Below, in pieces: positions 1 to 31,500 of a stretch of 33,073 nt of DNA. Origin of the DNA: a virus (Duplodnaviria; Heunggongvirae; Uroviricota; Caudoviricetes); the IMG/VR virus record IMGVR_UViG_2879765931_000003; one strand, 5' to 3'. The number at the start of each line of letters is the position of its first letter. The first letter of the stretch is position 1. Made by a program: the position numbers and the translations under genes. A model generated the notes under the pieces. That model did not search any database. It saw only the letters and a program-made list of their open reading frames with translations, and was not told the DNA's origin.

Positions 1-969
1 TTACACATCATTAGTACCTTCCTTATTTTTTGACTGGGACAAATTTGGGACCGATGGGTTCAGGATCGAGTCTATTTGCCGTGCGTGTTCGGTAAGGTGA
101 TTAGGTGCAAGGTGAGCATATCGACGAACCATTTCGATAGACTCCCAGCCTCCCATTTCCTGTAACACTGACAACGGGACTCCGGCTTGAACCAGCCAAC
201 TTGCCCAGGTGTGTCTCAAGTCGTGAAATCTGAAATCATCAATACCAGCCCGTCTCAGCGCCGCTTTCCAGGCTGTGTTTGCGTCATACCGCATCTTCCT
301 TACTGTTGGCGCTTTCGTTCCGTCTGGTTTGGTACAGCTTTCCTTGTACACAAATACCCAACGGTGATGATTCCCGATTTGTTTTTTCAATACGCGACAT
401 GCAGTATCATTCAGCGCAACGCCAATTGCGCGGTTTGATTTACTCTCTTCCGGGTTTATCCATGCCACCCGGCGCTGCATATCTATTTGTTGCCATTCAA
501 GGTTGATGATGTTCGAGCGTCTTAAGCCTGTTGCCAGTGCAAATTCAACAACAGACTTTAATGGCTCCGGACATTCATCAATCAGCCTTTGTGCTTCATG
601 GGGCTCCAGCCAGCGGATCCGTTTATTCTTTGGTTGAGGCACTTTAATAATTGGTGCCTTATCCAGCATTTTCCATTCACGCTCTGCGGCTCTTAGTAGG
701 GCCTTTATAAATGAAAGATGCGTAGCCTTCGTTGCAACGGACGCTGGTTTTGGCGTGTATTCTGGAACAGGTTTCCCTTTTTTTCTGCATGCTTCTGCCC
801 TGAGTTTCCAGTTTTCCTCATGACGCCGGTTCGTCATTTTCTGCATTGCTGAATAAATTTTTGATTCAGTGATGTCTCTTAGTTGCATCCCTGCGAAATG
901 TTGAAGCCAGAATCCGATCCGGCTTTTGTCATCGTCCAGTGATTTCTTATGTGCTTTCTCTTCGAGCCA
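1..969 (-). pseudogene. int: Phage tyrosine integrase, copy A: C-terminal ~320 codons, with the 5' part severed by IS600
   Basis: ORF ends ...[18 protein letters not shown]...[23 protein letters not shown]...TNDV* with stop at 1-3; the R..H..R..Y catalytic region is typical of tyrosine recombinases. Near-identical to the int at 11513-13942. Reading frame runs into the IS600 end at 970. Confidence 0.85.
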
Positions 970-1012
970 TGAGGTGTACTGGCAATAGCGGACACTACCA
1001 TTTGTTCTTTTT

Positions 1013-1831
1013 TTAAGCAGCCATCTGATGATATTTTTCCCTGAAGGCAGCCGGGGAGATATTCCCCAGACGAGAGTGACGACGCTGACGATTGTAGAAA
1101 ATCTCAATGTATTCCCGTATTACTGAGATGGCTTCATCCCGGTTATTAAAACGATAGTGGCTCAGGCTCTCATTTTTCAGCGTTCCCCAGAAGCTTTCCA
1201 TCGGAGCGTTGTCGTAACAGTTACCTTTACGCGACATTGATGTTTTCAGACCAAACTGCTCCTGTATGACCCGGTAATCGTATGCGCAGTACTGTGAACC
1301 TCGATCAGAGTGGTGGATTAGCCCGGCAGGTGGGCGCTGGCTCCTGAGCGCCATAAACAGGGCTTTACCTGTCAGCTCTTTTGTCATGCGCTCTCCCATG
1401 GCGTAGCCGACAATTTCGCACGTATAAACATCTTTGATACCAGCGAGGTACAACCATCCCTCCTGTGTGGCAACATACGTCAGGTCCGCCACCCAGACCT
1501 GATTTGGTGCTGTAGGAGCGAACGTCTGGTTCAGCAGATTTGGCGCAACAGGCAGATTGTGGTTCGGGTTCGTAGTCGCTCTGAACTTGCGTTTCTGCTT
1601 ACAGCGTAGCCTCAGCTCCTTACGAAGACGTGCCAGTCGGTCACGACCAACGATGATGCCATTCTCTGCCAGCTCCGTCTGGAGCCGCCGGGTTCCATAT
1701 GTTTCGCGAGTGCGGATATGTGCCACCTTAATCTCCAGTTTTAGCCGCTCATCACTTTGTTTTCTGTCTGAGGGTTCATGCTGTACCCAGTTGTAATAAC
1801 CGCTCCTGGATACACCAAATACCTGACACAT
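1013..1831 (-). CDS. IS600 OrfB (DDE transposase catalytic component)
   Basis: 272 aa, HSDRGSQY...[17 protein letters not shown] motif region; downstream of orfA in -1 frame. Confidence 0.88.
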
Positions 1832-1866
1832 CGCTTCAATGGGAAATTGTTGTCGCCATTGTTCGA

Positions 1867-2169
1867 TTAACGCGTATTTTTCAGCGACTCCTGTGCAAAA
1901 TACGCTGTTGCTTTTTTTAATATATCGCGCTCAAGGCGAGCTTCATTTAACGCCTTACGCAGTTGCAGAATTTCAGATTCCAGTTCAGCCACCGTGCGGG
2001 AACCAGGAGTACCGAGCCCTTTTCTGGCGGCGGTAACCCATTGTCCTAAAGTGCCTTCAGGAAGAGATAATCGGGAAGCGCCTTCACTGATCGAAAGTTG
2101 ATTTTCAAGAACCGTTCTGACAGCTTCGGCTTTGAACTCTTTAGAGTAACGTTGGGTTTTTCTGCTCAT
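1867..2169 (-). CDS. IS600 OrfA (transposase N-terminal HTH component)
   Basis: MSRKTQRYSKEFKAEAVRTV...LERDILKKATAYFAQESL, 100 aa, IS3-family OrfA pattern. Confidence 0.88.
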   Translation of the reverse strand: MSRKTQRYSKEFKAEAVRTVLENQLSISEGASRLSLPEGTLGQWVTAARKGLGTPGSRTVAELESEILQLRKALNEARLERDILKKATAYFAQESLKNTR

Positions 2170-2233
2170 TATTAGCTCCTTCTGATGCCATTCTATTTCA
2201 GGAAGGAGTGTCCGTTAAACTCAGGCTACCTCA

Positions 2234-2746
2234 CTTTGCAGCGTGGTGGAGGCATCCGGTGCCAGCCTGGAGAAGGGGCGGCACGATCAGTTGCTTACCG
2301 CACTTCGCGCGCTGCTGTTAAGCCGCAAGAATCCGTTTGGCGATATCAAATCGGATGGCACGGTGAAAACGGCTCTCGAAAACCTTGGTTTGGGAGAAGC
2401 AGCTAAAAGGAATGTAGGTACAGGGGCGAATCAGATACCTGATATGAGCCTGTTCGCGTCAAGTAATACCGCAACGGCTGCTGCGCAAAAATTTCCGTCT
2501 GGATTAATTTTACAGTGCGGTCAGTTGAATGGCTCCCCTAATGTATCTTCAACATACGGGATGAGGTTCCCGATGACATTCTCAAGAGTCCTTGCTGTCA
2601 CAGTTACATTGAACGTTACTGGCGCGTCAGGGCAGCCGACTGTATCGGCGACAAATGTCCAGAACACTGGATTTGATATTACAGTGTCGCCCGGTTCAGG
2701 ATATGGTTCATCTGCTGATGCGTATTACATTGCAATGGGATATTAA
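2234..2746 (+). pseudogene. Side tail fibre protein, C-terminal fragment (N-terminus removed by IS600)
   Basis: ...[29 protein letters not shown]...[12 protein letters not shown]...[18 protein letters not shown] is the conserved C-terminal region of lambdoid/T-even-like tail fibres; in-frame open from the IS600 boundary. Confidence 0.7.
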
Positions 2747-2750
2747 CGAA

Positions 2751-3158
2751 ATGTCATATTTTTATTCTGCATCGACAAACGGATTTTATTCGACTGAATT
2801 TCACGGCACCAATATTCCTGATGATGCAGTGGAAATCTCGGAATCAGAGTGGAAAACACTGATTAATTCGCAGAGTGTAACAAAAATGATTACCTGTGGT
2901 GAGAATGGTCACCCTGTCATTGTTGACCGTCCTTCTCCAACACCAGAACAATTAGCCTTAATAAATAATGAAAAGAAATCTGCACTGATAGCAGAGGCAA
3001 CGAATGTAATAGCGCCGCTTCAGGATGCGGTTGATTTAGATATGGCAACAGATGATGAAACGAAACTGTTACTGGCATGGAAAAAATATCGCGCACTATT
3101 GATGCGTGTTGATATAAAAAATACAGAGTGGCCGAAAAAACCAGAGAGCAATCTATAA
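2751..3158 (+). CDS. tfa: Tail fibre assembly protein (Tfa-like chaperone)
   Basis: Starts MSYFYSASTNGFYSTEF..., the typical Tfa N-terminus, immediately after the fibre gene stop; 135 aa. Confidence 0.65.
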   Translation: MSYFYSASTNGFYSTEFHGTNIPDDAVEISESEWKTLINSQSVTKMITCGENGHPVIVDRPSPTPEQLALINNEKKSALIAEATNVIAPLQDAVDLDMATDDETKLLLAWKKYRALLMRVDIKNTEWPKKPESNL

Positions 3159-3326
3159 GAGAAAATTCGTTATTGGATGAAAAGCGAGACATCTAATTAT
3201 AACAGCATATGGTTTTTCTAATGATAGCTCCTTCAACTTTATAGTATCTCATATACTCTAGAATATAGCTCTAAATGAGGGTTTGTTGTATACGGCAACC
3301 ACTCCATTTTTATTCCTGATAGGGAT

Positions 3327-3352
3327 ATAACCCGTCGAAAAAGACGGGTTAT
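3327..3352. terminator. Putative hairpin between convergent tfa and gtrC
   Basis: ataacccgtc-gaaaaa-gacgggttat inverted repeat in the convergent intergenic region; no strong T-tract. Confidence 0.3.
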
Positions 3353-3391
3353 TCATTCGTTAGTGTGGTTTATATGGTAGGGGGCAATTTA

Positions 3392-4913
3392 CTATAGGTT
3401 AAGTTTTTTGTTAAATACTAATATTACTCTTCCTTCAAAGTTCAAAACTTCGTCAGGCTTACCTAATTGTTCTTGAATACCTGCAAGGCAGGATGTCATT
3501 TCTTTACATCGTTCAGGTTCGTTAGCTATGGAAACTGCTATAAACTGTCGCTCAGGAGCAGAATTGAACGCCTCCTTGCTATGCCAAGAAGCCAGTGTCT
3601 GTTGTCTCACGCCAGTAAAGTTAATTTTCCCCGAATCAGCATTAAAGAAAACAGGAGTTATCTGTATGTCCCCACCAGATAACCAATTTACAGTCATTGA
3701 CAAATCCCAAAAAGAGCCGTACCCATAATGGAGATTATTTTTTTTTAAAAAATCAATGTATGATTTAACAATCTTCTCCTGATCGTGTAATGGTGAAGCA
3801 TTATTTGTGTAAGATTTAATTGAACTGATCGAAAATAAAAATGCGATTAGATAAAATAATATCTTTGCTTTTGTTGATGTACCGATACAGCACAATATCA
3901 GTGCGAAACAGGTAACATTCATAAAGAAACGCATGCTAATATAATCAGGGGATTTATAGCTCAGTATGAATGATGAGACAATACCTGCGATAGATAATAA
4001 TGAAAATAACACAATATAAATACGGTATGTGTTTTTTTTTATTGTCCGATAAAACAAACCACGCAGATGTAATAATGGCAATGAACCAAATGACAAATGA
4101 GGCGTAAGATGTTGCGTTATTGTCGACAACTAATAAATTAAGACTTTTTCCTATTAACAGAATGCACCATTTTGCATTTAAAATCATATCATTGAGTGAT
4201 ACAATTTCAAATTGGTGGGGAGGTATGTTAAGTAGATTTTGCAATACATTGGAAAGAGAGATTAAACATGCAAATAGTATTAATGCAGTATGCTTAAATA
4301 ATTTTTTATCCCATACAGAGAATAAAAAGTAAGATATTAATAGTGGAATAAGAAATGCAGCTGTAAACCACGGATCGGATACGCTGGAAAATAATGCTGT
4401 CAAACTTAAGAGGAGAGTGATAAATATATTTTTATACTGTATGTTGAAAACAGATATAAGCAAGCATAAAAAGCCGAAAGCGTTTGTTGAATTATGAGAA
4501 AAAGGATGTGATACAAAACCATAAGTGTATGAAAAATATGGTATTAGAGATAGAAGTATAATAGAAAATAAAGCAGGGGTAAACCCGAATGCCTTACGTA
4601 GCGTTAACATCGCTGCTATTACTATAGCAATAGAGAAAACTGCAGTTGATAATCTTAATGCTACTAAGCCATCATCACCTAACAGCATATAAAATAAAAA
4701 GTTAATTGGGTAAACGGTGAAATACCAATTATCCACGGTTGGTTTCCAGTCGTGGATTGATGATATACCATTCTCTAAAATATGCCTCCATACAATTGGG
4801 CTGTTAGCAACATCCGGTTCAACTGGAAAGTATCTGGTAGTCAACCAAGTTATTAGGAGTGCTGATAAAGCCAATAATATTTTTAATGCTGATTGTTTAA
4901 TACATATGCTCAT
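3392..4913 (-). pseudogene. GtrC-family type-specific O-antigen glucosyltransferase, read in two frames that overlap at a T9 (coding-strand A9) run at 4032-4040
   Basis: Polytopic membrane protein directly downstream of gtrA-gtrB in the usual gtrABC arrangement. ORF 3954-4913 (319 aa) and ORF 3392-4129 (245 aa) both cross the A9 run in different frames; a +/-1 change in the run would give one ~506-aa protein. Very AT-rich. Confidence 0.7.
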
Positions 4914-4915
4914 GG

Positions 4916-5836
4916 TTATTTTCTACCTTTCTTCAAAATATACTTAGGTCTTGATTTTGTTTCTAAGTAAATTCTACCTATATATTCACCGAGAACACCA
5001 ATCCCGATCAGTTGCACTCCACCCAAGAAAAGTATTGATACAAGCAGGGAGGGATACCCGCGTACTGGGTTACCAAAGACAAGGGTGTCTATAATCATCC
5101 ATGCACCATATAAAAATGAAATGCTTGCAACAAACAAGCCTATATAAGTCCATACGCGAAGAGGAAAGGTTGAAAAACTTGTGATACCTTCCAGTGCCAG
5201 ATTCCATAATTTCCAGCCATTAAATTTTGAGATGCCAGCAACACGCTCTGCGCGTACATATTCAACGACATCCGTCTGACCACCCACCCAGCTCAGTATG
5301 CCTTTCATGAAAAGATTGCGCTCAGGCAACAGTTTAATGTTCTCCACAACCTCACGAGACATGAGTCGAAAATCTCCGACATTTTCCTCGATCTTTGGGG
5401 TGCTTATTTTGTTGTGTAATTTATAGAACCACTCAGCTGTCTTACGTTTCAGTCGTCCATCAGTTGAGCGGTCTGAACGTTTAGCAAGCACCATCTCAGC
5501 ACCTGCCTGCCACTTTTCAATAAGATGAGGGATAACCTCAATTGGGTCTTGCAGGTCGACATCAATAGGAATTACAGCATCGCCGCTTGCATGGTCTAAC
5601 CCTGCAAATAAGGCTGGTTCTTTACCAAAGTTGCGTGTAAATGACAGCGGAACAACTAGCGGGTCTGAAACAGCCAGCGCGTTAATAATTGACTCTGTGG
5701 CATCTTTACTTCCGTCATTTATGAATACAATTTCTACTTCATATGGCTTCAACTCTTGGAATTCACGTACCGTTTTATAGAAAACAGGTATCGCTTCTTC
5801 TTCATTGAAGACAGGAACGACAAGAGATATTTTCAT
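4916..5836 (-). CDS. gtrB: Bactoprenol glucosyltransferase GtrB (GT2 family)
   Basis: 306 aa; [20 protein letters not shown]...DGSKD...D.D..D GT2 motifs and C-terminal TM segments; 2 bp upstream of gtrC. Confidence 0.92.
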
Positions 5837-6195
5837 TTCGCATCCCTAAAGACAATGAACTTTGAATAGACGAAACCGCACACCAGACTGATGGCGGAGA
5901 AGGTGATAAGAGTGACTATTGGAGGAAGTGAGCATTTATCAGCTGCCCAACCAACAATCACACTCAATATTCCCATAAATCCCACGTATAACATGTAGCG
6001 CATCGCTGTAGTCGATGCTTTGAATGTGAATCTTGCATTCGCGAAGAAGCTAAAGCTCACAGCCACTACGAAACCTGTGAAGTTTGCCAGAGCCTGACTG
6101 GTATGTGCGGTATAGATACATACACCAAAAACCACCCAGTGTATAAGTGTGTTCAGCACACCTATAGATGTGTACTTTACAAATAACTTTAACAT
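5833..6195 (-). CDS. gtrA: GtrA flippase-like small membrane protein
   Basis: 120 aa, [25 protein letters not shown]...[11 protein letters not shown]; overlaps the gtrB start by 4 nt. Confidence 0.92.
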
Positions 6196-6267
6196 TTATT
6201 TAATCAATGAGCTCTGAAAGGCATGAAGTCTATCATCCAAGTCTCAATTGATCGATACTTGCTATGT

Positions 6268-6320
6268 CTGATGAGACAAAACTGAGACACATAAGGCCTC
6301 ACAATGGCTTGCAAGGCTTT
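6268..6320 (-). promoter_or_regulatory. Conserved upstream block shared with the acyltransferase locus (candidate promoter/leader of the conversion cassette)
   Basis: Reverse complement AAAGCCTTGCAAGCCATTGTGAGGCCTTATGTGTCTCAGTTTTGTCTCATCAG matches 14168-14220 at 43 of 53 positions; both lie about 73-125 nt upstream of the start codon. Confidence 0.45.
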
Positions 6321-6396
6321 ACATGTTTTGATGTGGTGGGACGTGTGAGCGCAGTGTTGATGGGATAATCCTTTGAATTACAAGCGGATTCTTATA

Positions 6397-6442
6397 ATTC
6401 GTAATGCGAAGGTCGTAGGTTCGACTCCTATTATCGGCACCA
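6397..6442 (+). other. Phage attachment-site core: 46-nt 3' end of tRNA-Thr (thrW-type), not an intact tRNA
   Basis: ATTCGTAATGCGAAGGTCGTAGGTTCGACTCCTATTATCGGCACCA is the anticodon-loop-to-CCA portion of tRNA-Thr(CGU) as I recall it; the upstream sequence does not continue the tRNA. Confidence 0.8.
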
Positions 6443-6456
6443 TTTAAATCAATAAG

Positions 6457-6815
6457 TTACCTCGCATTTAAGTAAACTACGTTCTCCTCTTGTGCCGTAT
6501 TTGTGCCATTGCGACTTATAATCGCATCGATTTTGCTCGCGTGCTCGGTGAGATGCCCGGCTGAAAGGTGGGCGTATCTTTGAACCATTTCGAGAGTTTC
6601 CCATCCTCCCATCTCTTTAAGCGCAAGAAGAGAGACACCGGACTGAACCAGCCAGCTTGCCCAGGTATGCCTCAGGTCATGGAAGCGGAAGTTGCTAATG
6701 CCTGCCCGCTTTAACGCTCCCTTCCATGCCTTGTTGCTGTCGGTTCTCATCTTCCTTACCGCTGCTGTTTTTGTTCCGTCGCTTCGGTAGGCAGGTTTGG
6801 TGTGGACAAACACCC
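6457..6815 (-). pseudogene. int: Phage tyrosine integrase, C-terminal fragment (a third, divergent int), 5'-truncated by IS600
   Basis: ...[55 protein letters not shown]...; stop lies 14 nt from the att core, the same geometry as int copy B. Confidence 0.8.
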
Positions 6816-6858
6816 TGAGGTGTACTGGCAATAGCGGACACTACCATTTGTTCTTTTT

Positions 6859-7677
6859 TTAAGCAGCCATCTGATGATATTTTTCCCTGAAGGCAGCCGG
6901 GGAGATATTCCCCAGACGAGAGTGACGACGCTGACGATTGTAGAAAATCTCAATGTATTCCCGTATTACTGAGATGGCTTCATCCCGGTTATTAAAACGA
7001 TAGTGGCTCAGGCTCTCATTTTTCAGCGTTCCCCAGAAGCTTTCCATCGGAGCGTTGTCGTAACAGTTACCTTTACGCGACATTGATGTTTTCAGACCAA
7101 ACTGCTCCTGTATGACCCGGTAATCGTATGCGCAGTACTGTGAACCTCGATCAGAGTGGTGGATTAGCCCGGCAGGTGGGCGCTGGCTCCTGAGCGCCAT
7201 AAACAGGGCTTTACCTGTCAGCTCTTTTGTCATGCGCTCTCCCATGGCGTAGCCGACAATTTCGCACGTATAAACATCTTTGATGCCAGCGAGGTACAAC
7301 CATCCCTCCTGTGTGGCAACATACGTCAGGTCCGCCACCCAGACCTGATTTGGTGCTGTAGGAGCGAACGTCTGGTTCAGCAGATTTGGCGCAACTGGCA
7401 GATTGTGGTTCGGGTTCGTAGTCGCTCTGAACTTGCGTTTCTGCTTACAGCGTAGCCTCAGCTCCTTACGAAGACGTGCCAGTCGGTCACGACCAACGAT
7501 GATGCCATTCTCTGCCAGCTCCGTCTGGAGCCGCCGGGTTCCATATGTTTCGCGAGTGCGGATATGTGCCACCTTAATCTCCGGTTTTAGCCGCTCATCA
7601 CTTTGTTTTCTGTCTGAGGGTTCATGCTGTACCCAGTTGTAATAACCGCTCCTGGATACACCAAATACCTGACACAT
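6859..7677 (-). CDS. IS600 OrfB
   Basis: 272 aa DDE transposase. Confidence 0.88.
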   Translation of the reverse strand: MCQVFGVSRSGYYNWVQHEPSDRKQSDERLKPEIKVAHIRTRETYGTRRLQTELAENGIIVGRDRLARLRKELRLRCKQKRKFRATTNPNHNLPVAPNLLNQTFAPTAPNQVWVADLTYVATQEGWLYLAGIKDVYTCEIVGYAMGERMTKELTGKALFMALRSQRPPAGLIHHSDRGSQYCAYDYRVIQEQFGLKTSMSRKGNCYDNAPMESFWGTLKNESLSHYRFNNRDEAISVIREYIEIFYNRQRRHSRLGNISPAAFREKYHQMAA

Positions 7678-7712
7678 CGCTTCAATGGGAAATTGTTGTC
7701 GCCATTGTTCGA

Positions 7713-8015
7713 TTAACGCGTATTTTTCAGCGACTCCTGTGCAAAATACGCTGTTGCTTTTTTTAATATATCTCGCTCAAGGCGAGCTTCATTTAACGCC
7801 TTACGCAGTTGCAGAATTTCAGATTCCAGTTCAGCCAGCGTGCGGGAACCAGGAGTACCGAGCCCTTTTCTGGCGGCGGTAACCCATTGTCCTAAAGTGC
7901 CTTCAGGAAGAGATAATCGGGAAGCGCCTTCACTGATCGAAAGTTGATTTTCAAGAACCGTTCTGACAGCTTCGGCTTTGAACTCTTTAGAGTAACGTTG
8001 GGTTTTTCTGCTCAT
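7713..8015 (-). CDS. IS600 OrfA
   Basis: 100 aa, near-identical to the other copies. Confidence 0.88.
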   Translation of the reverse strand: MSRKTQRYSKEFKAEAVRTVLENQLSISEGASRLSLPEGTLGQWVTAARKGLGTPGSRTLAELESEILQLRKALNEARLERDILKKATAYFAQESLKNTR

Positions 8016-8177
8016 TATTAGCTCCTTCTGATGCCATTCTATTTCAGGAAGGAGTGTCCGTTAAACTCAGGCTACCTCAGACGTCCCGTATGATGGATAT
8101 GAAATCAAGACAATCACACATCCTGAACCGCCCCGGGAATCCTGGAGACTAAACTTCCTGAGAAAGAGGTAAACAGG

Positions 8178-8500
8178 ATGACTAAAAATACTCGTTTTTC
8201 CCCCGAAGTCCGTCAACGGGCAGTCCGTATGGTTCTGGAAAGTCAGGGCGAATATGACTCACAATGGGCGACAATTTGTTCCATTGCCCCAAAGATTGGC
8301 TGTACGCCGGAGACTCTGCGTGTCTGGGTTCGCCAGCATGAGCGGGATACCGGGGGCGGTGATGGAGGGCTCACCACCGCTGAACGTCAGCGTCTGAAAG
8401 AGCTGGAGCGTGAAAATCGTGAACTGCGCCGCAGTAACGATATCCTTCGCCAGGCTTCCGCTTATTTTGCGAAGGCGGAGTTCGACCGCCTCTGGAAAAA

Positions 8501-8504
<4 letters not shown>
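8178..8504 (+). CDS. IS629-like OrfA
   Basis: 108 aa HTH/leucine-zipper OrfA of the IS3 family. Confidence 0.82.
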
Positions 8505-9387
<883 letters not shown>

Positions 9388-9429
9388 GTTCACAGATAAA
9401 ACACTCTCCAGGAAACCCGGGGCGGTTCA

Positions 9430-9730
9430 GAAAGTAAATGAAACAGATGCTGAATACCTGGTGCGTAAATTCGATGAGCTTGAAGCTAAATGTGCAGCAC
9501 AGGAAAACAAAGTAATACCAGTGTCAACTGAACTGCCACCAGCAAATGAAAGTGTTTTGTTATTCGATGCTAACGGAGAAGGCTGGCTAATTGGCTGGCG
9601 TTCTCTCTGGTACACCTGGGGACAAAAAGAAACCGGAGAATGGCAGTGGACATTTCAGGTCGGGGACCTTGAAAACGTCAATATCACTCACTGGGCAGTA
9701 ATGCCAAAAGCACCGGAGGCTGGAGCATAA
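9430..9730 (+). pseudogene. Phage early-region protein, DUF551-like C-terminal fragment (5' end removed by IS629)
   Basis: ...LLFDANGEGWLIGWRSLWYTWGQKETGEWQW...ITHWAVMPKAPE has the Trp-rich pattern I associate with DUF551; no start codon after the IS boundary. Confidence 0.5.
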
Positions 9731-10035
9731 TGACCACTTTTACCGACAAAGAACTGATTAAAGAAATTAAAGAGCGTATCAGCAGCCTTGACGTGCGAGA
9801 CGATATTGAGCGCCGTGCTTATGAAATCGCACTCCTATCTCTGGAAGTAGAACCAGATGAACGCGAAGCTTATGAATTATTCATGGAAAAGCGTTTTGGT
9901 GACTTAGTAGATCGTCGGAGAGCAAAAAACGGCGATAACGAATACATGGCATGGGATATGACTCTCGGTTGGATCGTCTGGCAGCAACGAGCTGGTATCC
10001 ATTTCTCAACAATGTCACAGCAAGAGGTGAAATAA
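9730..10035 (+). CDS. Hypothetical phage early (ea-region) protein
   Basis: 101-aa ORF, start overlaps the upstream stop (TAATG), same direction as xis and int. Confidence 0.45.
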   Translation: MTTFTDKELIKEIKERISSLDVRDDIERRAYEIALLSLEVEPDEREAYELFMEKRFGDLVDRRRAKNGDNEYMAWDMTLGWIVWQQRAGIHFSTMSQQEVK

Positions 10036-10092
10036 TGGAGCCATACAGCCTCACACTCGATGAGGCCTGTCATTTTCTCAAGATTGAAGTGG

Positions 10093-11296
<1,204 letters not shown>

Positions 11297-12294
11297 CTCT
11301 GTTCAGGTGGCCAAATTCAGTGTGCCACTTCAGATATCCAGACCGACTGCCATTAACTGGATACGCACAGGGCGTCTTCAGGCAACACGCAAAGATCCCA
11401 CTAAGAATAAATCTCCTTACCTCACAACACGACAAGCCTGCATTGCGGCTCTTCAGTCTCCGCTGCATACTGTCCAGGTGAGCGCGGGTGATGGCATAAC
11501 AGAGGAAAGAAAATGTCACTCTTCCGCAGAGGTGAAATATGGTACGCCAGTTTCACATTGCCGAACGGTAAAAGATTTAAACAGTCTCTTGGAACAAAGG
11601 ACAAAAGGCAGGCGACAGAACTCCATGACAAGCTAAAGGCTGAAGCATGGCGGGTCAGCAAACTTGGTGAAATACCTGATATAACGTTCGAGGAAGCGTG
11701 TGTCAGGTGGCTTGAAGAGAAAGCACATAAAAAATCACTGGACGATGACAAAAGCCGGATCGGATTCTGGCTTCAACATTTCGCAGGAATACAACTAAGA
11801 GACATTACTGAATCAAAAATTTATTCAGCAATGCAGAAAATGACGAACCGGCGTCATGAGGAAAACTGGAAACTCAGGGCAGAATCATGCAGAAAAAAAG
11901 GGAAACCTGTTCCAGAATACACGCCAAAACCAGCGTCCGTTGCAACGAAGGCTACGCATCTTTCATTTATAAAGGCCCTACTAAGAGCCGCAGAGCGTGA
12001 ATGGAAAATGCTGGATAAGGCACCAATTATTAAAGTGCCTCAACCAAAGAATAAACGGATCCGCTGGCTGGAGCCCCATGAAGCACAAAGGCTGATTGAT
12101 GAATGTCCGGAGCCATTAAAGTCTGTTGTTGAATTTGCACTGGCAACAGGCTTAAGACGCTCGAACATCATCAACCTTGAATGGCAACAAATAGATATGC
12201 AGCGCCGGGTGGCATGGATAAACCCGGAAGTGAGGTAGCCTGAGTTTAACGGACACTCCTTCCTGAAATAGAATGGCATCAGAAGGAGCTAATA

Positions 12295-12597
12295 ATGAGC
12301 AGAAAAACCCGACGTTACTCTAAAGAGTTCAAAGCCGAAGCTGTCAGAACGGTTCTTGAAAATCAACTTTCGATCAGTGAAGACGCTTCCCGATTATTCC
12401 TTCCTGAAGGCACTTTAGGACAATGGGTTACCGCCGCCAGAAAAGGGCTCGGTACTCCTGGTTCCCGCACGGTGGCTGAACTGGAATCTGAAATTCTGCA
12501 ACTGCGTAAGGCGTTAAATGAAGCTCGCCTTGAGCGAGATATATTAAAAAAAGCAACAGCGTATTTTGCACAGGAGTCGCTGAAAAATACGCGTTAA
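12295..12597 (+). CDS. IS600 OrfA
   Basis: 100 aa. Confidence 0.88.
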   Translation: MSRKTRRYSKEFKAEAVRTVLENQLSISEDASRLFLPEGTLGQWVTAARKGLGTPGSRTVAELESEILQLRKALNEARLERDILKKATAYFAQESLKNTR

Positions 12598-12632
12598 TCG
12601 AACAATGGCGACAACAATTTCCCATTGAAGCG

Positions 12633-13451
12633 ATGTGTCAGGTATTTGGTGTATCCAGGAGCGGTTATTACAACTGGGTACAGCATGAACCCTCAGACAG
12701 AAAACAAAGTGATGAGCGGCTAACACTGGAGATTAAGGTGGCACATATCCGCACTCGCGAAACATATGGAACCCGGCGGCTCCAGACGGAGCTGGCAGAG
12801 AATGGCATCATCGTTGGTCGTGACCGACTGGCACGTCTTCGTAAGGAGCTAAGGCTACGCTGTAAGCAGAAACGCAAGTTCAGAGCGACTACGAACCCGA
12901 ACCACAATCTGCCAGTTGCGCCAAATCTGCTGAACCAGACGTTCGCTCCTACAGCACCAAATCAGGTCTGGGTGGCGGACCTGACGTATGTTGCCACACA
13001 GGAGGGATGGTTGTACCTCGCTGGCATCAAAGATGTTTATACGTGTGAAATTGTCGGCTACGCCATGGGAGAGCGCATGACAAAAGAGCTGACAGGTAAA
13101 GCCCTGTTTATGGCGCTCAGGAGCCAGCGCCCACCTGCCGGGCTAATCCACCACTCTGATCGAGGTTCACAGTACTGCGCATACGATTACCGGGTCATAC
13201 AGGAGCAGTTTGGTCTGAAAACATCAATGTCGCGTAAAGGTAACTGTTACGACAACGCTCCGATGGAAAGCTTCTGGGGAACGCTGAAAAATGAGAGCCT
13301 GAGCCACTATCGTTTTAATAACCGGGATGAAGCCATCTCAGTAATACGGGAATACATTGAGATTTTCTACAATCGTCAGCGTCGTCACTCTCGTCTGGGG
13401 AATATCTCCCCGGCAGCCTTCAGGGAAAAATATCATCAGATGGCTGCTTAA
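12633..13451 (+). CDS. IS600 OrfB
   Basis: 272 aa. Confidence 0.88.
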   Translation: MCQVFGVSRSGYYNWVQHEPSDRKQSDERLTLEIKVAHIRTRETYGTRRLQTELAENGIIVGRDRLARLRKELRLRCKQKRKFRATTNPNHNLPVAPNLLNQTFAPTAPNQVWVADLTYVATQEGWLYLAGIKDVYTCEIVGYAMGERMTKELTGKALFMALRSQRPPAGLIHHSDRGSQYCAYDYRVIQEQFGLKTSMSRKGNCYDNAPMESFWGTLKNESLSHYRFNNRDEAISVIREYIEIFYNRQRRHSRLGNISPAAFREKYHQMAA

Positions 13452-13956
13452 AAAAGAACAAATGGTAGTGTCCGCTATTGCCAGTACACCTCAAAGAGAG
13501 TAAATCAAACCGCGCAATTGGCGTTGCGCTGAATGATACTGCATGTCGCGTATTGAAAAAACAAATCGGAAATCATCACCGTTGGGTATTTGTGTACAAG
13601 GAAAGCTGTACCAAACCAGACGGAACGAAAGCGCCAACAGTAAGGAAGATGCGGTATGACGCAAACACAGCCTGGAAAGCGGCGCTGAGACGGGCTGGTA
13701 TTGATGATTTCAGATTTCACGACTTGAGACACACCTGGGCAAGTTGGCTGGTTCAAGCCGGAGTCCCGTTATCAGTGTTACAGGAAATGGGAGGCTGGGA
13801 GTCTATCGAAATGGTTCGTCGATATGCTCACCTCGCACCTAATCACCTTACCGAACACGCACGGCAAATAGACTTGATTCTGAACCCATCGGTCCCAAAT
13901 TTGTCCCAGTCAAGAAATAAGGAAGGTACTAATGATGTGTAACTTATTGATTTTAA

Positions 13957-14002
13957 TGGTGCCGATAATAGGAGTCGAACCTACGACCTTCGCATTACGA
14001 AT
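13957..14002 (-). other. Second phage attachment-site core: 46-nt tRNA-Thr 3' end in inverse orientation, not an intact tRNA
   Basis: TGGTGCCGATAATAGGAGTCGAACCTACGACCTTCGCATTACGAAT is the reverse complement of the core at 6397-6442; the 14-nt spacer to the int stop is nearly identical at both sites. Confidence 0.8.
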
Positions 14003-14167
14003 CTGTAGCACCAATCATAACTATCTGTTTTAGCAAGCATTAACCGCATTCACTAAGCTATAGTTGATGACACAAACAGAAAGTTGATGCATGATGTTGC
14101 CATATATATGTCACAAATACGGCACAACGATCTTCAAACATATAGCCACACATTCACAGAAGAGCAC

Positions 14168-14220
14168 AAAGCCTTGCAATCCAGTGCAAAGCTTGGTGTG
14201 TCTCCGTTTTGTTTCATCAG
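14168..14220 (+). promoter_or_regulatory. Conserved upstream block (paralogue of 6268-6320), candidate promoter/leader of the acyltransferase gene
   Basis: AAAGCCTTGCAATCCAGTGCAAAGCTTGGTGTGTCTCCGTTTTGTTTCATCAG, 71-123 nt upstream of the start codon. Confidence 0.45.
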
Positions 14221-14290
14221 TTACACATAACTATATGATCATTAACTAAAAGTCAGTATACTTGGAGAAATTTTAATTGCGTAATAGAGC

Positions 14291-15463
14291 ATGCATATGA
14301 TTGAAATTAACAGTTTATTATTAATAACATCCGTGATATTGATGTCGTTATTAGCTGTGGGGTTATTTGATAAAATTTCCCCAATAAATCTTGTTGAGCA
14401 CGGCAGGAATAATCAAATAGATGGAATGCGGGGGTTCTTAGCAATTTTCGTGCTTATTCATCACGCAGCAATTTGGAATGGATACTTGTCATCTGGAGTA
14501 TGGGAAGCACCTTCATCAAATCTGTTAGCAAATTTAGGCCAAGTTGGTGTGTCATTCTTTTTTATGATTACTGGTTATCTGTTCTTTTCAAAGATTATCT
14601 CTGGAGATCAGGACTGGACAAGGCTTTATGTATCAAGATTACTACGATTAACCCCAATGTTCATAGTTAGCCTATGTCTCATTTTTATCATTGTAGGTTT
14701 TAAGTCTGGATGGAGAATGCAGGTATCCACAGAAGAGCTTTTTGTGTCAATAATGAAGTGGTTGCCATTCACTGCGCTAGGTATGCCGAACATTAATGAC
14801 GTAAAAGATTCATTTACTATCAATGCCGCTGTAACATGGACACTTGTATATGAATGGTTCTTTTATTTTTCTCTTCCGGTAATTTCCGCGCTCATAAAAA
14901 GAAAAGTCAGTATTTACATGGTTATGATTAGCGCAATATCGCTATTTGTTTTCATTTTATTTTTCAGTAAAATACACATAGCATCATTTCTTTTTGGGCT
15001 CCTGGCATTTTTGCTAAATAAATCAAAGATAGTCAATGGAATTGCCAAAGCAAAAGTAACACCAATTATAATAACTGCGATAATGGTTTTTGAAATGACG
15101 TATTTCAAAACAACTTACGCACCGCTACCACTGATTCTTTGTGGAATAACATTTATCATTATCGCATCAGGTTGTGATTTGTATGGAATATTAAGATTAA
15201 ATATAACCAGAAAGCTAGGAGAAACTACCTACAGCGTTTACCTTCTGCATGGGATATTCCTTTATTGCCTAATGACGTGGATTATTCCTAATAATTACAC
15301 TGAAAATACATTTATCATACTGGTAAGCACAACTGCATTTCTTATTACGTTCACATCATGCCTAACTTTTAAATTAATAGAGACGCCATTCATCAAATTA
15401 ACAAAACAAACCACAACTTTAGTAAAAGAATTAATACCCACATTAACAAACAACAATCAATAA
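14291..15463 (+). CDS. Acyltransferase family 3 integral membrane protein; candidate O-antigen O-acetyltransferase (Oac-like) conversion gene
   Basis: 390 aa, multi-TM; N-terminal ...DGMRGFLAIFVLIHH... and ...SFFFMITGYLF... motifs of acyltransferase-3 enzymes; occupies the cargo slot between att/int and the tailspike; AT-rich. The exact start (14291 or 14297) is uncertain. Confidence 0.78.
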   Translation: MHMIEINSLLLITSVILMSLLAVGLFDKISPINLVEHGRNNQIDGMRGFLAIFVLIHHAAIWNGYLSSGVWEAPSSNLLANLGQVGVSFFFMITGYLFFSKIISGDQDWTRLYVSRLLRLTPMFIVSLCLIFIIVGFKSGWRMQVSTEELFVSIMKWLPFTALGMPNINDVKDSFTINAAVTWTLVYEWFFYFSLPVISALIKRKVSIYMVMISAISLFVFILFFSKIHIASFLFGLLAFLLNKSKIVNGIAKAKVTPIIITAIMVFEMTYFKTTYAPLPLILCGITFIIIASGCDLYGILRLNITRKLGETTYSVYLLHGIFLYCLMTWIIPNNYTENTFIILVSTTAFLITFTSCLTFKLIETPFIKLTKQTTTLVKELIPTLTNNNQ

Positions 15464-15476
15464 ACAATAAACATAA

Positions 15477-15508
15477 GCCGCCCTACATATATGTCCAAAT
15501 GGGGCGGC
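15477..15508. terminator. Putative bidirectional hairpin between convergent acyltransferase and tailspike fragment
   Basis: GCCGCCC-(17 nt)-GGGGCGGC followed by an AT-rich stretch. Confidence 0.3.
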
Positions 15509-15516
15509 GAATGTAT

Positions 15517-16224
15517 TTATATTAGTCTGGTAATGCTAAATGCAAACGAACTGGAGATTCCTGCCCCGCTAAGCGTATTGCGCAGGGTCACCCTAAATGT
15601 ATCTACGCCAATATAAGTAACATCACAACTAACTGAATCAGGCGCAGATATAGGTGTTATCTGCACAATATAACCGCTAGCAACTGCTGCGAGCGGATGA
15701 GAAAAGCTAACATCATACACACCTGTAGAAACCACGTTAACCGATGAAACACCAGTAGCAACGTCGATACTACCATTGGCGTTAATTTTTCCCGAGCGTG
15801 TGACTGACAATGCAGAAGCCGATGTTACCTTACTGGTTGTTTCTGTAAAAACACACCCAATGTCAACTACCTCGCAATTAGCTCCTGTTATCCAGTATGG
15901 TCGTTCTGCACTTGGCTGATAATCCCCTGCGCTCTGGAACGTTGTGCCGTTGAGTATGACTGTAACTTTTCCCCCACCTGAGCTTGTTACTTGAATATTC
16001 GTGTGCGTGTATCTTGCACTGCTCACGCGATGAAAATTTCCACCGTTTATAACCACAGTTACAGGGCGCGTCCCAGTATTATCTATAGCAAGGTCTGCCC
16101 CCCCGGCATTAGCCTCAAAGTATGGGTTGTTTAATACCAAAGCGCACGAACCGTTAAGGCCATTTATAGCTAATTGCGCACCACCTGTACTGGAATCCCC
16201 CTGAGTACCATTTCCTTCACAAGT
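15517..16224 (-). pseudogene. Tailspike / tail-fibre receptor-binding protein, C-terminal ~235-aa fragment (N-terminus removed by IS600)
   Basis: Reading frame open from the IS600 boundary to the stop at 15517; Gly/Ser/Thr/Asn-rich beta-strand-like repeats; position downstream of the ejection genes as for P22 gene 9. Confidence 0.5.
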
Positions 16225-16266
16225 TGAGGTGTACTGGCAATAGCGGACACTACCATTTGTTCTTTT

Positions 16267-17085
16267 TTAAGCAGCCATCTGATGATATTTTTCCCTGAAG
16301 GCAGCCGGGGAGATATTCCCCAGACGAGAGTGACGACGCTGACGATTGTAGAAAATCTCAATGTATTCCCGTATTACTGAGATGGCTTCATCCCGGTTAT
16401 TAAAACGATAGTGGCTCAGGCTCTCATTTTTCAGCGTTCCCCAGAAGCTTTCCATCGGAGCGTTGTCGTAACAGTTACCTTTACGCGACATTGATGTTTT
16501 CAGACCAAACTGCTCCTGTATGACCCGGTAATCGTATGCGCAGTACTGTGAACCTCGATCAGAGTGGTGGATTAGCCCGGCAGGTGGGCGCTGGCTCCTG
16601 AGCGCCATAAACAGGGCTTTACCTGTCAGCTCTTTTGTCATGCGCTCTCCCATGGCGTAGCCGACAATTTCGCACGTATAAACATCTTTGATGCCAGCGA
16701 GGTACAACCATCCCTCCTGTGTGGCAACATACGTCAGGTCCGCCACCCAGACCTGATTTGGTGCTGTAGGAGCGAACGTCTGGTTCAGCAGATTTGGCGC
16801 AACTGGCAGATTGTGGTTCGGGTTCGTAGTCGCTCTGAACTTGCGTTTCTGCTTACAGCGTAGCCTCAGCTCCTTACGAAGACGTGCCAGTCGGTCACGA
16901 CCAACGATGATGCCATTCTCTGCCAGCTCCGTCTGGAGCCGCCGGGTTCCATATGTTTCGCGAGTGCGGATATGTGCCACCTTAATCTCCGGTTTTAGCC
17001 GCTCATCACTTTGTTTTCTGTCTGAGGGTTCATGCTGTACCCAGTTGTAATAACCGCTCCTGGATACACCAAATACCTGACACAT
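16267..17085 (-). CDS. IS600 OrfB
   Basis: 272 aa. Confidence 0.88.
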   Translation of the reverse strand: MCQVFGVSRSGYYNWVQHEPSDRKQSDERLKPEIKVAHIRTRETYGTRRLQTELAENGIIVGRDRLARLRKELRLRCKQKRKFRATTNPNHNLPVAPNLLNQTFAPTAPNQVWVADLTYVATQEGWLYLAGIKDVYTCEIVGYAMGERMTKELTGKALFMALRSQRPPAGLIHHSDRGSQYCAYDYRVIQEQFGLKTSMSRKGNCYDNAPMESFWGTLKNESLSHYRFNNRDEAISVIREYIEIFYNRQRRHSRLGNISPAAFREKYHQMAA

Positions 17086-17448
17086 CGCTTCAATGGGAAA
17101 TTGTTGTCGCCATTGTTCGATTAACGCGTATTTTTCAGCGACTCCTGTGCAAAATACGCTGTTGCTTTTTTTAATATATCTCGCTCAAGGCGAGCTTCAT
17201 TTAACGCCTTACGCAGTTGCAGAATTTCAGATTCCAGTTCAGCCAGCGTGCGGGAACCAGGAGTACCGAGCCCTTTTCTGGCGGCGGTAACCCATTGTCC
17301 TAAAGTGCCTTCAGGAAGAGATAATCGGGAAGCGCCTTCACTGATCGAAAGTTGATTTTCAAGAACCGTTCTGACAGCTTCGGCTTTGAACTCTTTAGAG
17401 TAACGTTGAACCGCCCCGGGTTTCCTGGAGAGTGTTTTATCTGTGAAC

Positions 17449-18331
<883 letters not shown>

Positions 18332-18335
<4 letters not shown>

Positions 18336-18658
18336 TTTTTCCAGAGGCGGTCGAACTCCGCCTTCGCAAAATAAGCGGAAGCCTGGCGAAGGATATCGTT
18401 ACTGCGGCGCAGTTCACGATTTTCACGCTCCAGCTCTTTCAGACGCTGACGTTCAGCGGTGGTGAGCCCTCCATCACCGCCCCCGGTATCCCGCTCATGC
18501 TGGCGAACCCAGACACGCAGAGTCTCCGGCGTACAGCCAATCTTTGGGGCAATGGAACAAATTGTCGCCCATTGTGAGTCATATTCGCCCTGACTTTCCA
18601 GAACCATACGGACTGCCCGTTGACGGACTTCGGGGGAAAAACGAGTATTTTTAGTCAT
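18332..18658 (-). CDS. IS629-like OrfA
   Basis: 108 aa, identical to copy 1. Confidence 0.82.
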
Positions 18659-18783
18659 CCTGTTTACCTCTTTCTCAGGAAGTTTAGTCTCCAGGATTCC
18701 CGGGGCGGTTCACGTTGGGTTTTTCTGCTCATTATTAGCTCCTTCTGATGCCATTCTATTTCAGGAAGGAGTGTCCGTTAAAC

Positions 18784-20514
18784 TCAGGCTACCTCAACTC
18801 TCTTTTCAATAGGGTCAAGGTTTTTCATCCCGCCAAGATCTTCTGCCACCTGTTTGAGCATTGACCTTGTTGATGGCGCATCAATTTTTGCACCTGCAGG
18901 CATCGCCTTTTCAACATTGCGATAAAGCTGGTCGCTTCGTTTCATCAGCGCAGACATTCTTCCATTGACCGTATCAATAAACTTGTCGCTCATACCAAGA
19001 GCATCTTTTGCACCGGAAACGCGATCAATTATCTCACCCGCGCCCTGTGCTAGCTGCCTGATTGCTTCATTTTCCTGCACCTGTAGAGCAGAACCCGCAC
19101 GGGACTTGATTGCTTGCTCAACTGCCTTGTATTGCTCGTTCCCGGAAAAGTGTGAAGGGAGTAATGAATCAACATTAAGCCTTTCAGCAGACTCCAGAAC
19201 TTCAGCCTGAGGATTGATATCTAGTTCATCAAGCGATGAAGCGAGATTTGGCCTTTTTTGTGCTGCTACTGTGCGAACGACTTCCTCTGGGTTCTTCGTC
19301 GCAGGCGTCATTGGTACACCTTGTGCTACTCTTGCCTCTGCGGCATGAACCGCAGGATTTGTTGCTGCAGCGGCATCACCGGAGAATGGTGATGTTTCTG
19401 TTGGCGCAGTGGTCGCTCTCTGTGCAGATGTTTTATTGCCACTAATTATATTTGATGCACCACGAACACCACGGGTAACGCCATTTATCAGGCCATGCGT
19501 AGCAATGCTAAGTCCGGCATTAATAGCGGCATTTTCGGCAAAATCACCCCGTTGATTCGCCGCGTCAGCGAGAGAACCAATGACCATGTTTCCAGCTACA
19601 CCTGCTCCAGGAACAAGATAACCGCCTATTGACTCTCCAGCTTGCGCGTAGGGGTCTGTCGGTCTGTCTACTGGACGATAAACATCATCCAATACTTTTG
19701 GCCCCCCAAGCCCCTGACTGATTGCATTAATCAGACTTGCGCCACCCTGCAATACGTCAAATGGTATGTTTACCAGACCACGACCAGCCTGTTCTGCAAT
19801 TTGCCCTGCACTTTGACCACCAGTGAGCCAATCGCCAGCTTGTTGCATCAATGATGGTTCTTCCCGTGTTGGTGCATTATTGGCCTGATTAACTGTTTGT
19901 TGCTGAACAGGTTTCGGTGCGACAGAACTTACGGGTTGAGGTGGCTGCTGACTGGCTGCCTGCTGCTCAATCTGAGCAAATGGATTATTTGGGTCTGACT
20001 GCACACCTGATGCCGATACTTGTTCGGATGACTGTACTTCCAGTTGTGCAAACGGGTTGTTAGGGTCTTGCTGAGGATGTACCTTTGCAGAGGTGGCGCG
20101 CTGTTCGACTGTTGAGTCTGTCACCGGGTCACCAGCCCATTGAGCAAAGCGATCATCAACGTAACCGCGGCCTTCAGGTCCTGGCGTATATTCACCACGC
20201 TTTGCCTTCATAACGTTGCCGGGACCGTCGTGATAAGCCTGAAGAGCGTCACGCCAGTTACCAAACTGCTGGTACATCTTTGCCAGATAGCGCGCGCCAG
20301 CGTCAGCCTGATATTCGGGGTTTTGCATTTGCTCATCGGTATAACCCATATCACGCCATGTCCCAGGCATGACCTGAGTCAATCCTACAGCCCCGGCGGA
20401 GCTTACTGCGGCAGGGTTGTAAGAAGACTCCTTGGCACCCAGTGCAGTCATCAACCCTTCTGGCACACCGTAACGTGCGCCAGCCTGCTCTAACAAATCA
20501 CGGTAATTAGCCAT
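18784..20514 (-). CDS. Ejection (injection) protein at the P22 gp16 position, with an N-terminal lytic-transglycosylase (SLT)-like domain; C-terminus replaced by the IS600 end
   Basis: 576 aa; ...[28 protein letters not shown]...[11 protein letters not shown]... resembles SLT motifs; the last codons and the stop lie within the IS600 terminal repeat. Confidence 0.6.
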
Positions 20515-21846: not shown

Positions 21847-21855
21847 GATTACCCC

Positions 21856-22548: not shown

Positions 22549-22550
22549 GG

Positions 22551-23009
22551 CTATCTCCCGTGATTCAGGAAGTCGATTAGTTCTTCGCGTGTGGCGCTGT
22601 AAAAAGTCACGTCATCCACGCCTTTGAAGTATTTCTTGATGGTTCCTACACGCTTAAGGCCAATCATTGCGCAGTACATCTGACCGTGTCGGAATTTGCG
22701 TGCAGCGAACGATGTTACGCACTGAACGGTGGTGTTAGTCAGAATGTATCGCCAGAACGCCAGCCCAATTTCCTTGCTGAAGCCGCGAATCTCTGGCAGG
22801 TACATGGCGTGGCAATCTAATGTCAGCGGCTGAATCTCCTGATAGTAAACAATGCCGCCAAACTGACCGTGCACGTTCACCTCAAAGTAACGGCATTCAG
22901 GTTTGTAGTCGTATCCATCACCGTTGTTGCTCCCGGCGATAATGTCAGGGTGATTTCCGACTGCTTCTATCAGGTCGATGTTTCGCGTTGGTTTGAATGT
23001 AATCATCAC
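22551..23009 (-). CDS. P22 gp14-like protein (assigned by position)
   Basis: 152 aa between the needle and gp7-like genes; assignment by synteny only. Confidence 0.45.
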
Positions 23010-28231: not shown

Positions 28232-28244
28232 GATTAACTCTCTC

Positions 28245-30231: not shown

Positions 30232-30267
30232 TGAAGTGGCACACTGAATTTGGCCACCTGAACAGAG

Positions 30268-31472
<1,205 letters not shown>

Positions 31473-31500
31473 CCACTTCATTGCAACAAAGGTAAAGACG

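Follow-up and report, generated by a model that had tools for sequence, protein, structure and literature searches.

The cryptic prophage CP4-6 of Escherichia coli K-12 is flanked by thrW and ptwF. A 46-nt sequence has been printed as the attP core common to the phages SfI, SfII, SfV, SfX and P22 (PMC3636060), and SfI has been found experimentally to integrate at the attL of a resident SfX prophage, giving a tandem array in the proA-yaiC(adrA) interval and serotype 1d (Sun et al. 2011, PMC3306764). For the oacB gene, a 'transposon-like structure' upstream of adrA was described in serotypes 1a, 1b, 2a, 5a and Y (Wang et al. 2014, as relayed by PMC4159516 and PMC8973906), and in the serotype 1c strain Y394 the gtrI cluster contains the gene, 6.8 kb upstream of gtrA (PMC5596473). 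The core, its fixed 14-nt distance to the integrase stop, tandem integration at thrW, the oacB gene flanked by integrase and IS sequences upstream of adrA, and the 6.8-kb distance from gtrA (Y394) are all published. The junctions reported here are a known, ordinary feature of the locus and are a confirmation, not a discovery.

The window analysed here is a stretch of 33,073 nt catalogued as a Caudoviricetes virus (IMG/VR record IMGVR_UViG_2879765931_000003). It was identical to the NCBI chromosome record CP026871.1, with no mismatches over the two overlapping stretches (14,913 and 21,173 nt, respectively), and the chromosome that carries it is that of Shigella flexneri. The features of the window are listed in Table 1.

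Table 1. Features of the window and of the thrW gene just outside its left edge, in window coordinates.
Feature	Position	Strand	Description
thrW, intact	-89 to -14 (outside window)		76 nt; tRNA-Thr, anticodon CGT; L010:14928-15003
intA'	1-969	-	C-terminal 322 codons of an SfI/SfIV-type integrase; stop codon 1-3; PF00589
IS600 copy 1	970-2233	-	1264 bp; flanks CCA / CTT, no TSD; joins intA' to the SfI tail-fibre region
SfI prophage right end	2237-6396	-	tail fibre to P arm
Tail-fibre fragment	within 2237-6396		SfI
Tail-fibre assembly gene	2655-3158	+	SfI right end
gtrI	3392-4913		SfI right end; frameshifted
gtrB	4916-5836		SfI right end
gtrA	5833-6195		PF04138
SfI-type P arm	6196-6396		100% identical to the SfI and SfII attP P arms
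att core 1	6397-6442	+	46 nt; thrW 3' end
Spacer 1, TTTAAATCAATAAG	6443-6456	+	14 nt
int'C	6457-6815	-	last 119 codons (359 nt) of an SfX-type (P22-like phage) integrase; cut by IS600
IS600 copy 2	6816-8079	-	flanks CCC / GAC, no TSD
IS629-type copy 1	8124-9429	+	flanks TCC / GAA, no TSD
SfIV-like left-arm genes	9430-11512	+	two early ORFs and xis
xis	9942-10084 and 11333-11636		split by IS911 (10085-11332)
IS911 copy 1	10085-11332		TSD GAT; interrupts xis
intB	11513-13942	+	full-length SfIV/SfI-type integrase, 1164 nt; stop codon 13940-13942; split by IS600 copy 3
IS600 copy 3	12231-13493		TSD AAG; simple insertion in intB
Spacer 2, TTAAAATCAATAAG	13943-13956	- (as read)	14 nt
att core 2	13957-14002	-	46 nt; thrW 3' end
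SfX-type P arm	14003-14290	-	abuts core 2; first ~200 nt match the SfX attP arm; unique P-arm DNA 14003-14219
oacB	14291-15463	+	O-antigen 3/4-O-acetyltransferase gene, 390 aa; PF01757 (Acyl_transf_3)
Podovirus tailspike C-terminal fragment	15517-16140	-	207 aa; matches Sf101 tail protein
IS600 copy 4	16225-18796	-	flanks AGT / ACT, no TSD; carries nested IS629
IS629 copy 2	17407-18712		nested in IS600 copy 4; TSD CGT
P22-like (Sf101 / APC_JM3.2 / IME10-like) late genes	18797-30231	-	gp16 back to portal
IS911 copy 2	30232-31480		no TSD
IS2	31833 to window end		

The string ATTCGTAATGCGAAGGTCGTAGGTTCGACTCCTATTATCGGCACCA occurred exactly twice in the window, once on each strand, and gave no matches in 100 shuffled sequences. 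A first-pass annotation, made from the letters alone, had taken it for a tRNA-Thr 3' segment, and the alignment bore this out: both copies are exact and identical to the 3' part of the annotated E. coli tRNA-Thr gene (thrW) beside proA, so that each site carries the 46-bp tRNA-Thr(CGU) 3' end of a thrW-specific phage att core. Upstream (5') of the core, the window sequences were unrelated to the tRNA in the same alignment. The inverted repeat around the two cores extended over 64 nt (6397-6460 and 13939-14002, 98% identity) and took in the core, the 14-nt spacer and the first bases of the two integrase stop regions.

At both sites the stop codon of a tyrosine integrase follows the CCA of the core after 14 nt, and the same spacing was present in the true attL of E. 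coli O157 and PD7 and in SfI, SfII, SfIV and SfX. The two spacers, which had been noticed as nearly identical, differ at one position. TTTAAATCAATAAG is the allele that accompanies int' in SfX and in the thrW-int' loci of E. coli, and the SfI attP spacer reads TTAAAAT at the place where TTTAAATCAATAAG differs. This SNP (TTTAAAT versus TTAAAAT) is polymorphic within integrase types, TTTAAAT being found with an Sf-type int in the loci L019 and L022 and in SfII; because it is not strictly linked to integrase type, it is weak as a crossover marker. The integrase tails, also noticed at first reading, do differ: translation ends in ...VVYLNAR at junction 1 (ORF 6457-6831, minus strand) and in ...NKEGTNDV at junction 2 (ORF 13478-13942, plus strand), and both ORFs matched PF00589. 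No tRNA gene was found in the window by ARAGORN and no tRNA family matched in Rfam, so the tRNA 5' half that would have made either core an attL or attR is missing at both. The left flanks are phage P arms, beyond which lies the cargo that had been pointed out across each core, namely gtrA and the acyltransferase gene, now identified as oacB.

A core continuous with the tRNA 5' half was present only at a third site, outside the window. The third integrase copy, intA', ends at the window start as had been read, and the further core expected beyond it is there: in the source record, the order just outside position 1 is intact thrW, TTAAAATCAATAAG and then the integrase stop, with thrW 14 nt beyond the integrase copy. 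The upstream extension that had been proposed thus places the intact gene beside proA, with proA and proB lying beyond it. Together, thrW and intA' at the left edge of the window are a genuine attL. The N-terminus of intA' has been removed by IS600. What remains was 98.9% identical to the int of phage SfI, compared with 99.9% on the gtr side, and in view of this difference the gtrI phage may originally have had another integrase.

To assign the arms, core flanks were compared across phage records and 30 loci. Three left arms were distinguished, namely the thrW 5' half, an SfI/II/IV-type arm ('ttgatggg...cttata') and an SfX-type arm ('taatgcttgc...gctacag'), along with two right arms, the Sf-type int (...TNDV) and int' (...YLNAR); all six left/right combinations were found among the loci examined. 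In the SfI, SfII and SfIV records, the native pairing is the 'ttgatggg...cttata' arm with the ...TNDV integrase, and in SfX (U82084.1) it is the 'taatgcttgc...gctacag' arm with the ...YLNAR integrase. The window junctions are the two reciprocal combinations of these native attP arms. At neither do both arms come from one phage type, and neither hybrid pairing occurred as a phage attP among the phage records examined. Neither junction is therefore a native attP, and the two are reciprocal hybrids of the SfI/II/IV and SfX attP types. Such cross-pairing makes it very likely that each junction unites the right end of a prophage with the left end of its neighbour. The first-pass annotation had proposed phage DNA on both arms, as in tandem or recombined prophages rather than a simple attL/attR pair; the arm pairings support this proposal, with its 'attP-like' refined to reciprocal hybrids.

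Junction 1 (6196-6815) joins the gtrA/P arm of SfI to the SfX-type integrase int'. Positions 2237-6460 differed from phage SfI (JX509734) by 5 mismatches and 1 indel in 4224 nt, with 4 of the mismatches and the indel lying within 2237-6396. Across the core, the first departure from SfI was at 6445, 3 nt past the core, and divergence was complete from the integrase stop onward. A match to SfI at 99.9% up to the core, followed by an unrelated int', is what is predicted for a crossover by strand exchange inside the core. In E. coli PD7, a P22-like prophage sits at an intact thrW, and the 3' end of its full-length integrase gene was 100% identical to the remnant int'C; identity of int'C to the SfX int (U82084.1) was 98.6%. 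The same 359-nt remnant was present in the loci L019-L028, and the position of the IS600 cut was the same in all 12 copies compared from related S. flexneri loci. In two genomes (L027 and L028), thrW is followed directly by int'C, with IS600 adjoining in L027 only. Junction 1 would be the attR of an SfI prophage that integrated at a thrW already bearing the old int' remnant.

Junction 2 (13497-14290) joins an SfX-type P arm carrying oacB to the SfIV/SfI-type integrase intB. On the integrase side, the left-arm genes were 99.5-100% identical to phage SfIV (KC814930). After removal of IS600 copy 3 and one copy of its TSD, intB gave a gap-free 1164-nt alignment to the SfI int; its identity to the SfIV int was 99.7% and 98.4%, the latter value applying to the C-terminal part, and both halves matched PF00589. 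On the oacB side, the P arm of core 2 showed 97.5% identity over 198 nt to SfX (U82084.1) and to an SfX-like prophage in the locus L023, and homology to the podovirus Sf101 began at 14159, inside the arm. Positions 14159-16164, which contain oacB and the tail-protein fragment, were 91.5% identical to Sf101, where the gene is annotated as O-acyltransferase B. The exact OacB protein was found in 2935 collection blocks, S. flexneri 2457T among them. The serotype 1b gene oac1b, located at torT-ymcA (PMC3630932), was considered for the acyltransferase and rejected on the exact match to the 2457T OacB and the DNA identity to the Sf101 gene.

The late genes lie on the same strand as the tailspike fragment and are collinear with it, and oacB comes next, in the order of Sf101. 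Overall, 14159-25277 was collinear with Sf101 except for approximately 2.5 kb replaced by IS600::IS629; the DNA lost at IS600 copy 4 extends from the 3' end of gp16 through the tailspike N-terminus. Sf101-like late genes, tailspike, oacB and the SfX-type arm therefore run up to the core, and SfIV-like int, xis and early genes follow it. We read junction 2 as a probable seam at which an Sf101-like podovirus, whose right end carried oacB behind an SfX-type P arm, meets the int of an SfIV-like prophage. Neither P arm yielded anything decisive when scanned for promoters and terminators.

All three integrases have been damaged by IS600, with intA' cut at 970, int'C cut at 6816 and intB split at 12231-13493. 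No intact integrase, and hence no active integration/excision module, stands beside an att site, and the sites are no longer resolvable by their own enzymes. The IS copies lacking a TSD sit at block boundaries, as expected for recombinant copies; IS600 copy 1 is, for want of a TSD, a recombinant or deletion-associated copy. The left flank of IS629 copy 1 is a conserved 44-nt spacer (8080-8123), and its right flank lies inside an SfIV_31-like early gene. This copy lacks a TSD even in the simplest comparator (L023), which makes the ancestral state of that flank uncertain, and L025 has a left context of IS629 different from the L023 flank. An ALIL pseudoknot was located within the same copy, at 8459-8575. 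An IS2 label for 8103-9433 and 17407-18733 was rejected on the terminal sequences, which are of IS629 type; the 301-aa ORF at 31845-32750 is the transposase of the multicopy IS2.

Both junction types recur in four independent complete genomes (CP026871, CP026765, LR213452 and AE014073). At the SfI-type junction 1 of the loci L019 and L021 and at the loci of strain 2457T (AE014073), the arm and spacer sequences were exactly those of the window; at junction 2, the spacer SNP and the int allele vary between strains. The comparison with prophage arrays in complete genomes, suggested at first reading, brought out the same pair of junctions in 2457T, again with the cores inverted: the order there is oacB-core-int, IS600 and int'C-core-gtrA(SfII), and the oacB-side integrase is a different allele from that of the window. 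In 2a strains the same oacB arm is joined to another int allele. In genomes of the CP007037/CP026788 type, an SfII block bounded by IS600 is flipped and intB::IS600 is joined to an intact thrW. The same intB::IS600 allele, with the same insertion site, thus stands with the thrW 5' half in CP007037 (L022) and with the oacB arm in the window, L019 and L006. The scaffold KN150717.1, with two loci 24 kb apart, carries an apparently un-inverted array in the order SfII, core, SfX-like podovirus, core, int'C, IS600, IS629 and adrA. In CP026765 (L019), gtrA and oacB are 6.8 kb apart, and the distance in the window is larger by one IS911.

In a simple tandem array all cores would be oriented as thrW is, and core 2 is inverted relative to both core 1 and thrW. 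As the boundary IS copies lack TSDs and the same blocks are otherwise oriented in related genomes, the inverted geometry is probably an IS-mediated rearrangement that varies between strains. A single inversion between the IS600 in int' and another IS600 was dropped as its course, since the series int'C, IS600, 44 nt and IS629 is an old flank, conserved and adjacent to adrA in L023, and the breakpoint beside the SfIV-like early genes lies at IS629 rather than at IS600. Among the loci examined, no reciprocal IS junctions came to light, for example one with the N-terminal half of the int' of the array podovirus.

Taken together, these observations make it very likely that both sites are inter-prophage junctions of a tandem array of serotype-converting prophages at thrW, since frozen and scrambled by IS elements. 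Such an array would have been built from two attP types with a common 46-bp core, one belonging to the SfI/SfII/SfIV myoviruses (gtrA, P arm, core and Sf-type int) and the other to SfX-like podoviruses (cargo, SfX P arm, core and int'). With the tyrosine integrases exchanging strands inside the shared core, each new phage would enter thrW or the resident attL and regenerate an intact thrW beside its own int, and the newcomer's cargo-side P arm would be left fused, via a copy of the core, to the int of the resident prophage. IS600 would then have inactivated all three integrases, and recombination among IS600, IS629 and IS911 copies would have deleted most of the prophage DNA and flipped blocks, so that core 2 now points opposite to core 1 and thrW. 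Here the sequence identities, the arm pairings, the intact thrW beyond the window edge, the IS disruptions and the state of the TSDs are observations, and the order of the integrations and the pairs of IS copies that recombined are what we infer.

Three other accounts were weighed against the tandem array. The block 6397-14002 is bounded exactly by inverted cores, and the integrase of a superinfecting Sf phage, acting in trans, might, rather than IS elements, have inverted it and re-assorted the arms. The two settings of the intB::IS600 allele, with the thrW 5' half in L022 and with the oacB arm in the window, L019 and L006, fit such an event, as does the occurrence of the same oacB arm with a different int allele in 2a strains. 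Sequential integration and excision at thrW, combined with homologous exchange between int copies that are 98% identical, would give the same patterns, however, and the boundary IS600 and IS629 copies without TSDs suffice as an explanation. Moreover, no functional thrW-type integrase is encoded in the window, and no two genomes were found whose sole difference is a core-to-core flip, which leaves this account decidedly unlikely. The related idea that cores bounding dead remnants stay recombination-competent, such that Int in trans could flip the 7.5-kb block 6397-14002 and re-assort arms between remnants, is likewise unlikely; it is prompted by the lineage-dependent partner of the intB::IS600 allele (thrW 5' half or oacB arm). 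If it holds, the gtr and oacB serotype cassettes would be shuffled by phage Int as well as by IS elements.

It is also very unlikely that junction 2 arrived from elsewhere on an IS600 composite transposon carrying int, core and oacB, for which an Sf101 prophage at sbcB is the proposed source. In 2a strains an integrase and IS600 copies do flank oacB, a transposon-like element has been described upstream of adrA, and mobilisation from sbcB has been proposed, the last two as far as PMC4159516 and PMC8973906 relay them. The DNA between oacB and the core is, however, an SfX-type thrW attP arm and not the attP of Sf101, which is 13 bp long and specific to sbcB, and the core lies precisely where an attR should be. 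In addition, the collinearity of oacB with podovirus late genes persists for about 11 kb across IS600 copy 4, and no TSD is common to the bounding IS600 copies, since copy 3 has its own and copy 4 has unmatched flanks. On balance, we lean towards the view that oacB was brought into the proA-adrA region by an Sf101-like podovirus that had an SfX-type att/int module and integrated site-specifically, rather than by an IS600 transposition out of sbcB. The third account, in which the junctions are native attP sites of phages that are intact or circularised, or arose when phage and chromosomal reads were misjoined in assembly, is hardly credible: phage DNA does lie on both arms and the geometry equals that of the SfI and SfX attP, but every phage attP examined pairs its arms differently, IS600 has disrupted both integrases, and the same junction types are present in independent assemblies.

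In the proA-thrW-adrA region, S. flexneri takes up and accumulates the gtr and oac genes that determine its serotype, and serotype is the target of candidate vaccines. Read correctly, the att seams tell which phages came and in what relative order. With no live integrase copy left in the window, the cassettes are now fixed where they are. One point is added to the published picture of this region, in that the att-level anatomy of the 'transposon-like' oacB element argues for the in-situ right end of a thrW-integrated podovirus. This anatomy, an SfX-type P arm followed by the thrW core, had no mention in the literature consulted, where the original description is represented second-hand.

Compared with the known systems, the window is closest to the tandem SfI-SfX lysogens, with which it shares the core, the locus and the phage families; the seam of those lysogens, gtrA(SfI) followed by the core and an SfX-type int, matches junction 1 in composition. 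Unlike in the lysogens, int' survives in the window as a 359-nt remnant that IS600 had already truncated, most of the SfI prophage genome is missing at IS600 copy 1, and there is a second, oacB-side seam in inverted orientation. The native attP of thrW-type phages, a 46-bp core with int immediately downstream, has an identical core and 14-nt spacing, and the P arms of the window are 97.5-100% identical to the SfI/SfII and SfX arms, but at each window junction a P arm and an int/P' arm of different types are combined. The thrW-integrating lambdoid phages HK446, HK542, mEpX2, mEp213 and HK75 have an integrase of the same family (int'C is 98-99% identical to their int), and their records annotate the attP as similar to thrW and ptwF; these phages and CP4-6 are single phages or a single cryptic prophage, unlike the hybrid seams of the window. 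The published oacB element has the same gene with integrase and IS600 flanks and an identical OacB protein, and the gtrA-oacB spacing of Y394 equals that of CP026765. In contrast to that element, the tailspike side of the window carries IS600::IS629 and then podovirus late genes, rather than adrA.

In KN150717.1, two comparison loci (L023 and L024, 2104326–2161231) lie in the same orientation with 24 kb between them, and, as read from the loci themselves, they jointly appear to represent an un-inverted tandem array in which every core is direct. The array would run in the order SfII, core, SfX-like podovirus, core, int'C (the C-terminal remnant of an SfX-type integrase), IS600, IS629, and adrA, where the SfX-like podovirus comprises an int'::IS600 remnant, xis, and early genes and, farther along, gp16, the tailspike, and the gtr cluster.

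IS911 occurs twice in the window, in mutually inverted copies. In CP130061 (L006) and LR213452 (L021), IS911 adjoins position ~11438–11442 instead, and thus the IS911-mediated rearrangement of this region is not the same from strain to strain. In serotype 2a genomes, the IS629 nested in IS600 copy 4 runs straight into adrA, which takes the place of the final 84 nt of IS600 (18713–18796, including the CGT duplication); the nested copy has thus undergone recombination with a second IS629 copy in serotype 2a strains. The sole Rfam matches in the window were two ALIL pseudoknots (8459–8575 and 18261–18377; 116 bits each), each located within one of the two IS629-type copies, and they correspond to the programmed-frameshift signal of the IS3 family.

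Insertion sequences discussed in the text and their target-site duplications (TSDs)
Element	Coordinates	Context	TSD
IS600 copy 4	16225–18796	with nested insertion	
IS629-type element	17407–18712	inside IS600 copy 4	CGT
IS911 copy 1	10085–11332	simple insertion in xis	GAT
IS911 copy 2	30232–31480	end of podovirus late-gene block	none

Left of the window in CP026871.1 (L010), an IS1 fragment followed by ykgG/ykgF-like LUD-domain genes was observed upstream of proB. Elsewhere in S. flexneri and E. coli, the loci carry phoE-crl-frsA at the same position, and hence the entire proBA-thrW block lies in a rearranged context in CP026871.1.

Within gtrI (3392–4913), a T inserted at 4032 (+1 nt relative to phage SfI) breaks the 506-aa type-I glucosyltransferase into two ORFs, one of 319 aa and the other of 245 aa. 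CP026765 and LR213452, whose loci are otherwise alike, have an unbroken gtrI; hence, judging from the sequence, the type I antigen may be unexpressed in the window strain, notwithstanding the presence of the SfI cassette.

The oacB module, previously described as part of a 'transposon-like structure', has the appearance of a right end, still in situ, that belongs to an Sf101-like podovirus (14003–14290 and 14159–25277). The att arm beside oacB is of the SfX/thrW type, and the attP of Sf101 itself is of the sbcB type. Since homology to Sf101 begins at 14159 and similarity with the SfX P arm (the phage DNA on the cargo side of the core) stops near 14219, the mosaic joint between the SfX-type arm and the Sf101-like DNA falls within this ~60-nt stretch, which shows partial conservation (81%) in the P arms of SfI, SfII, and SfIV as well.
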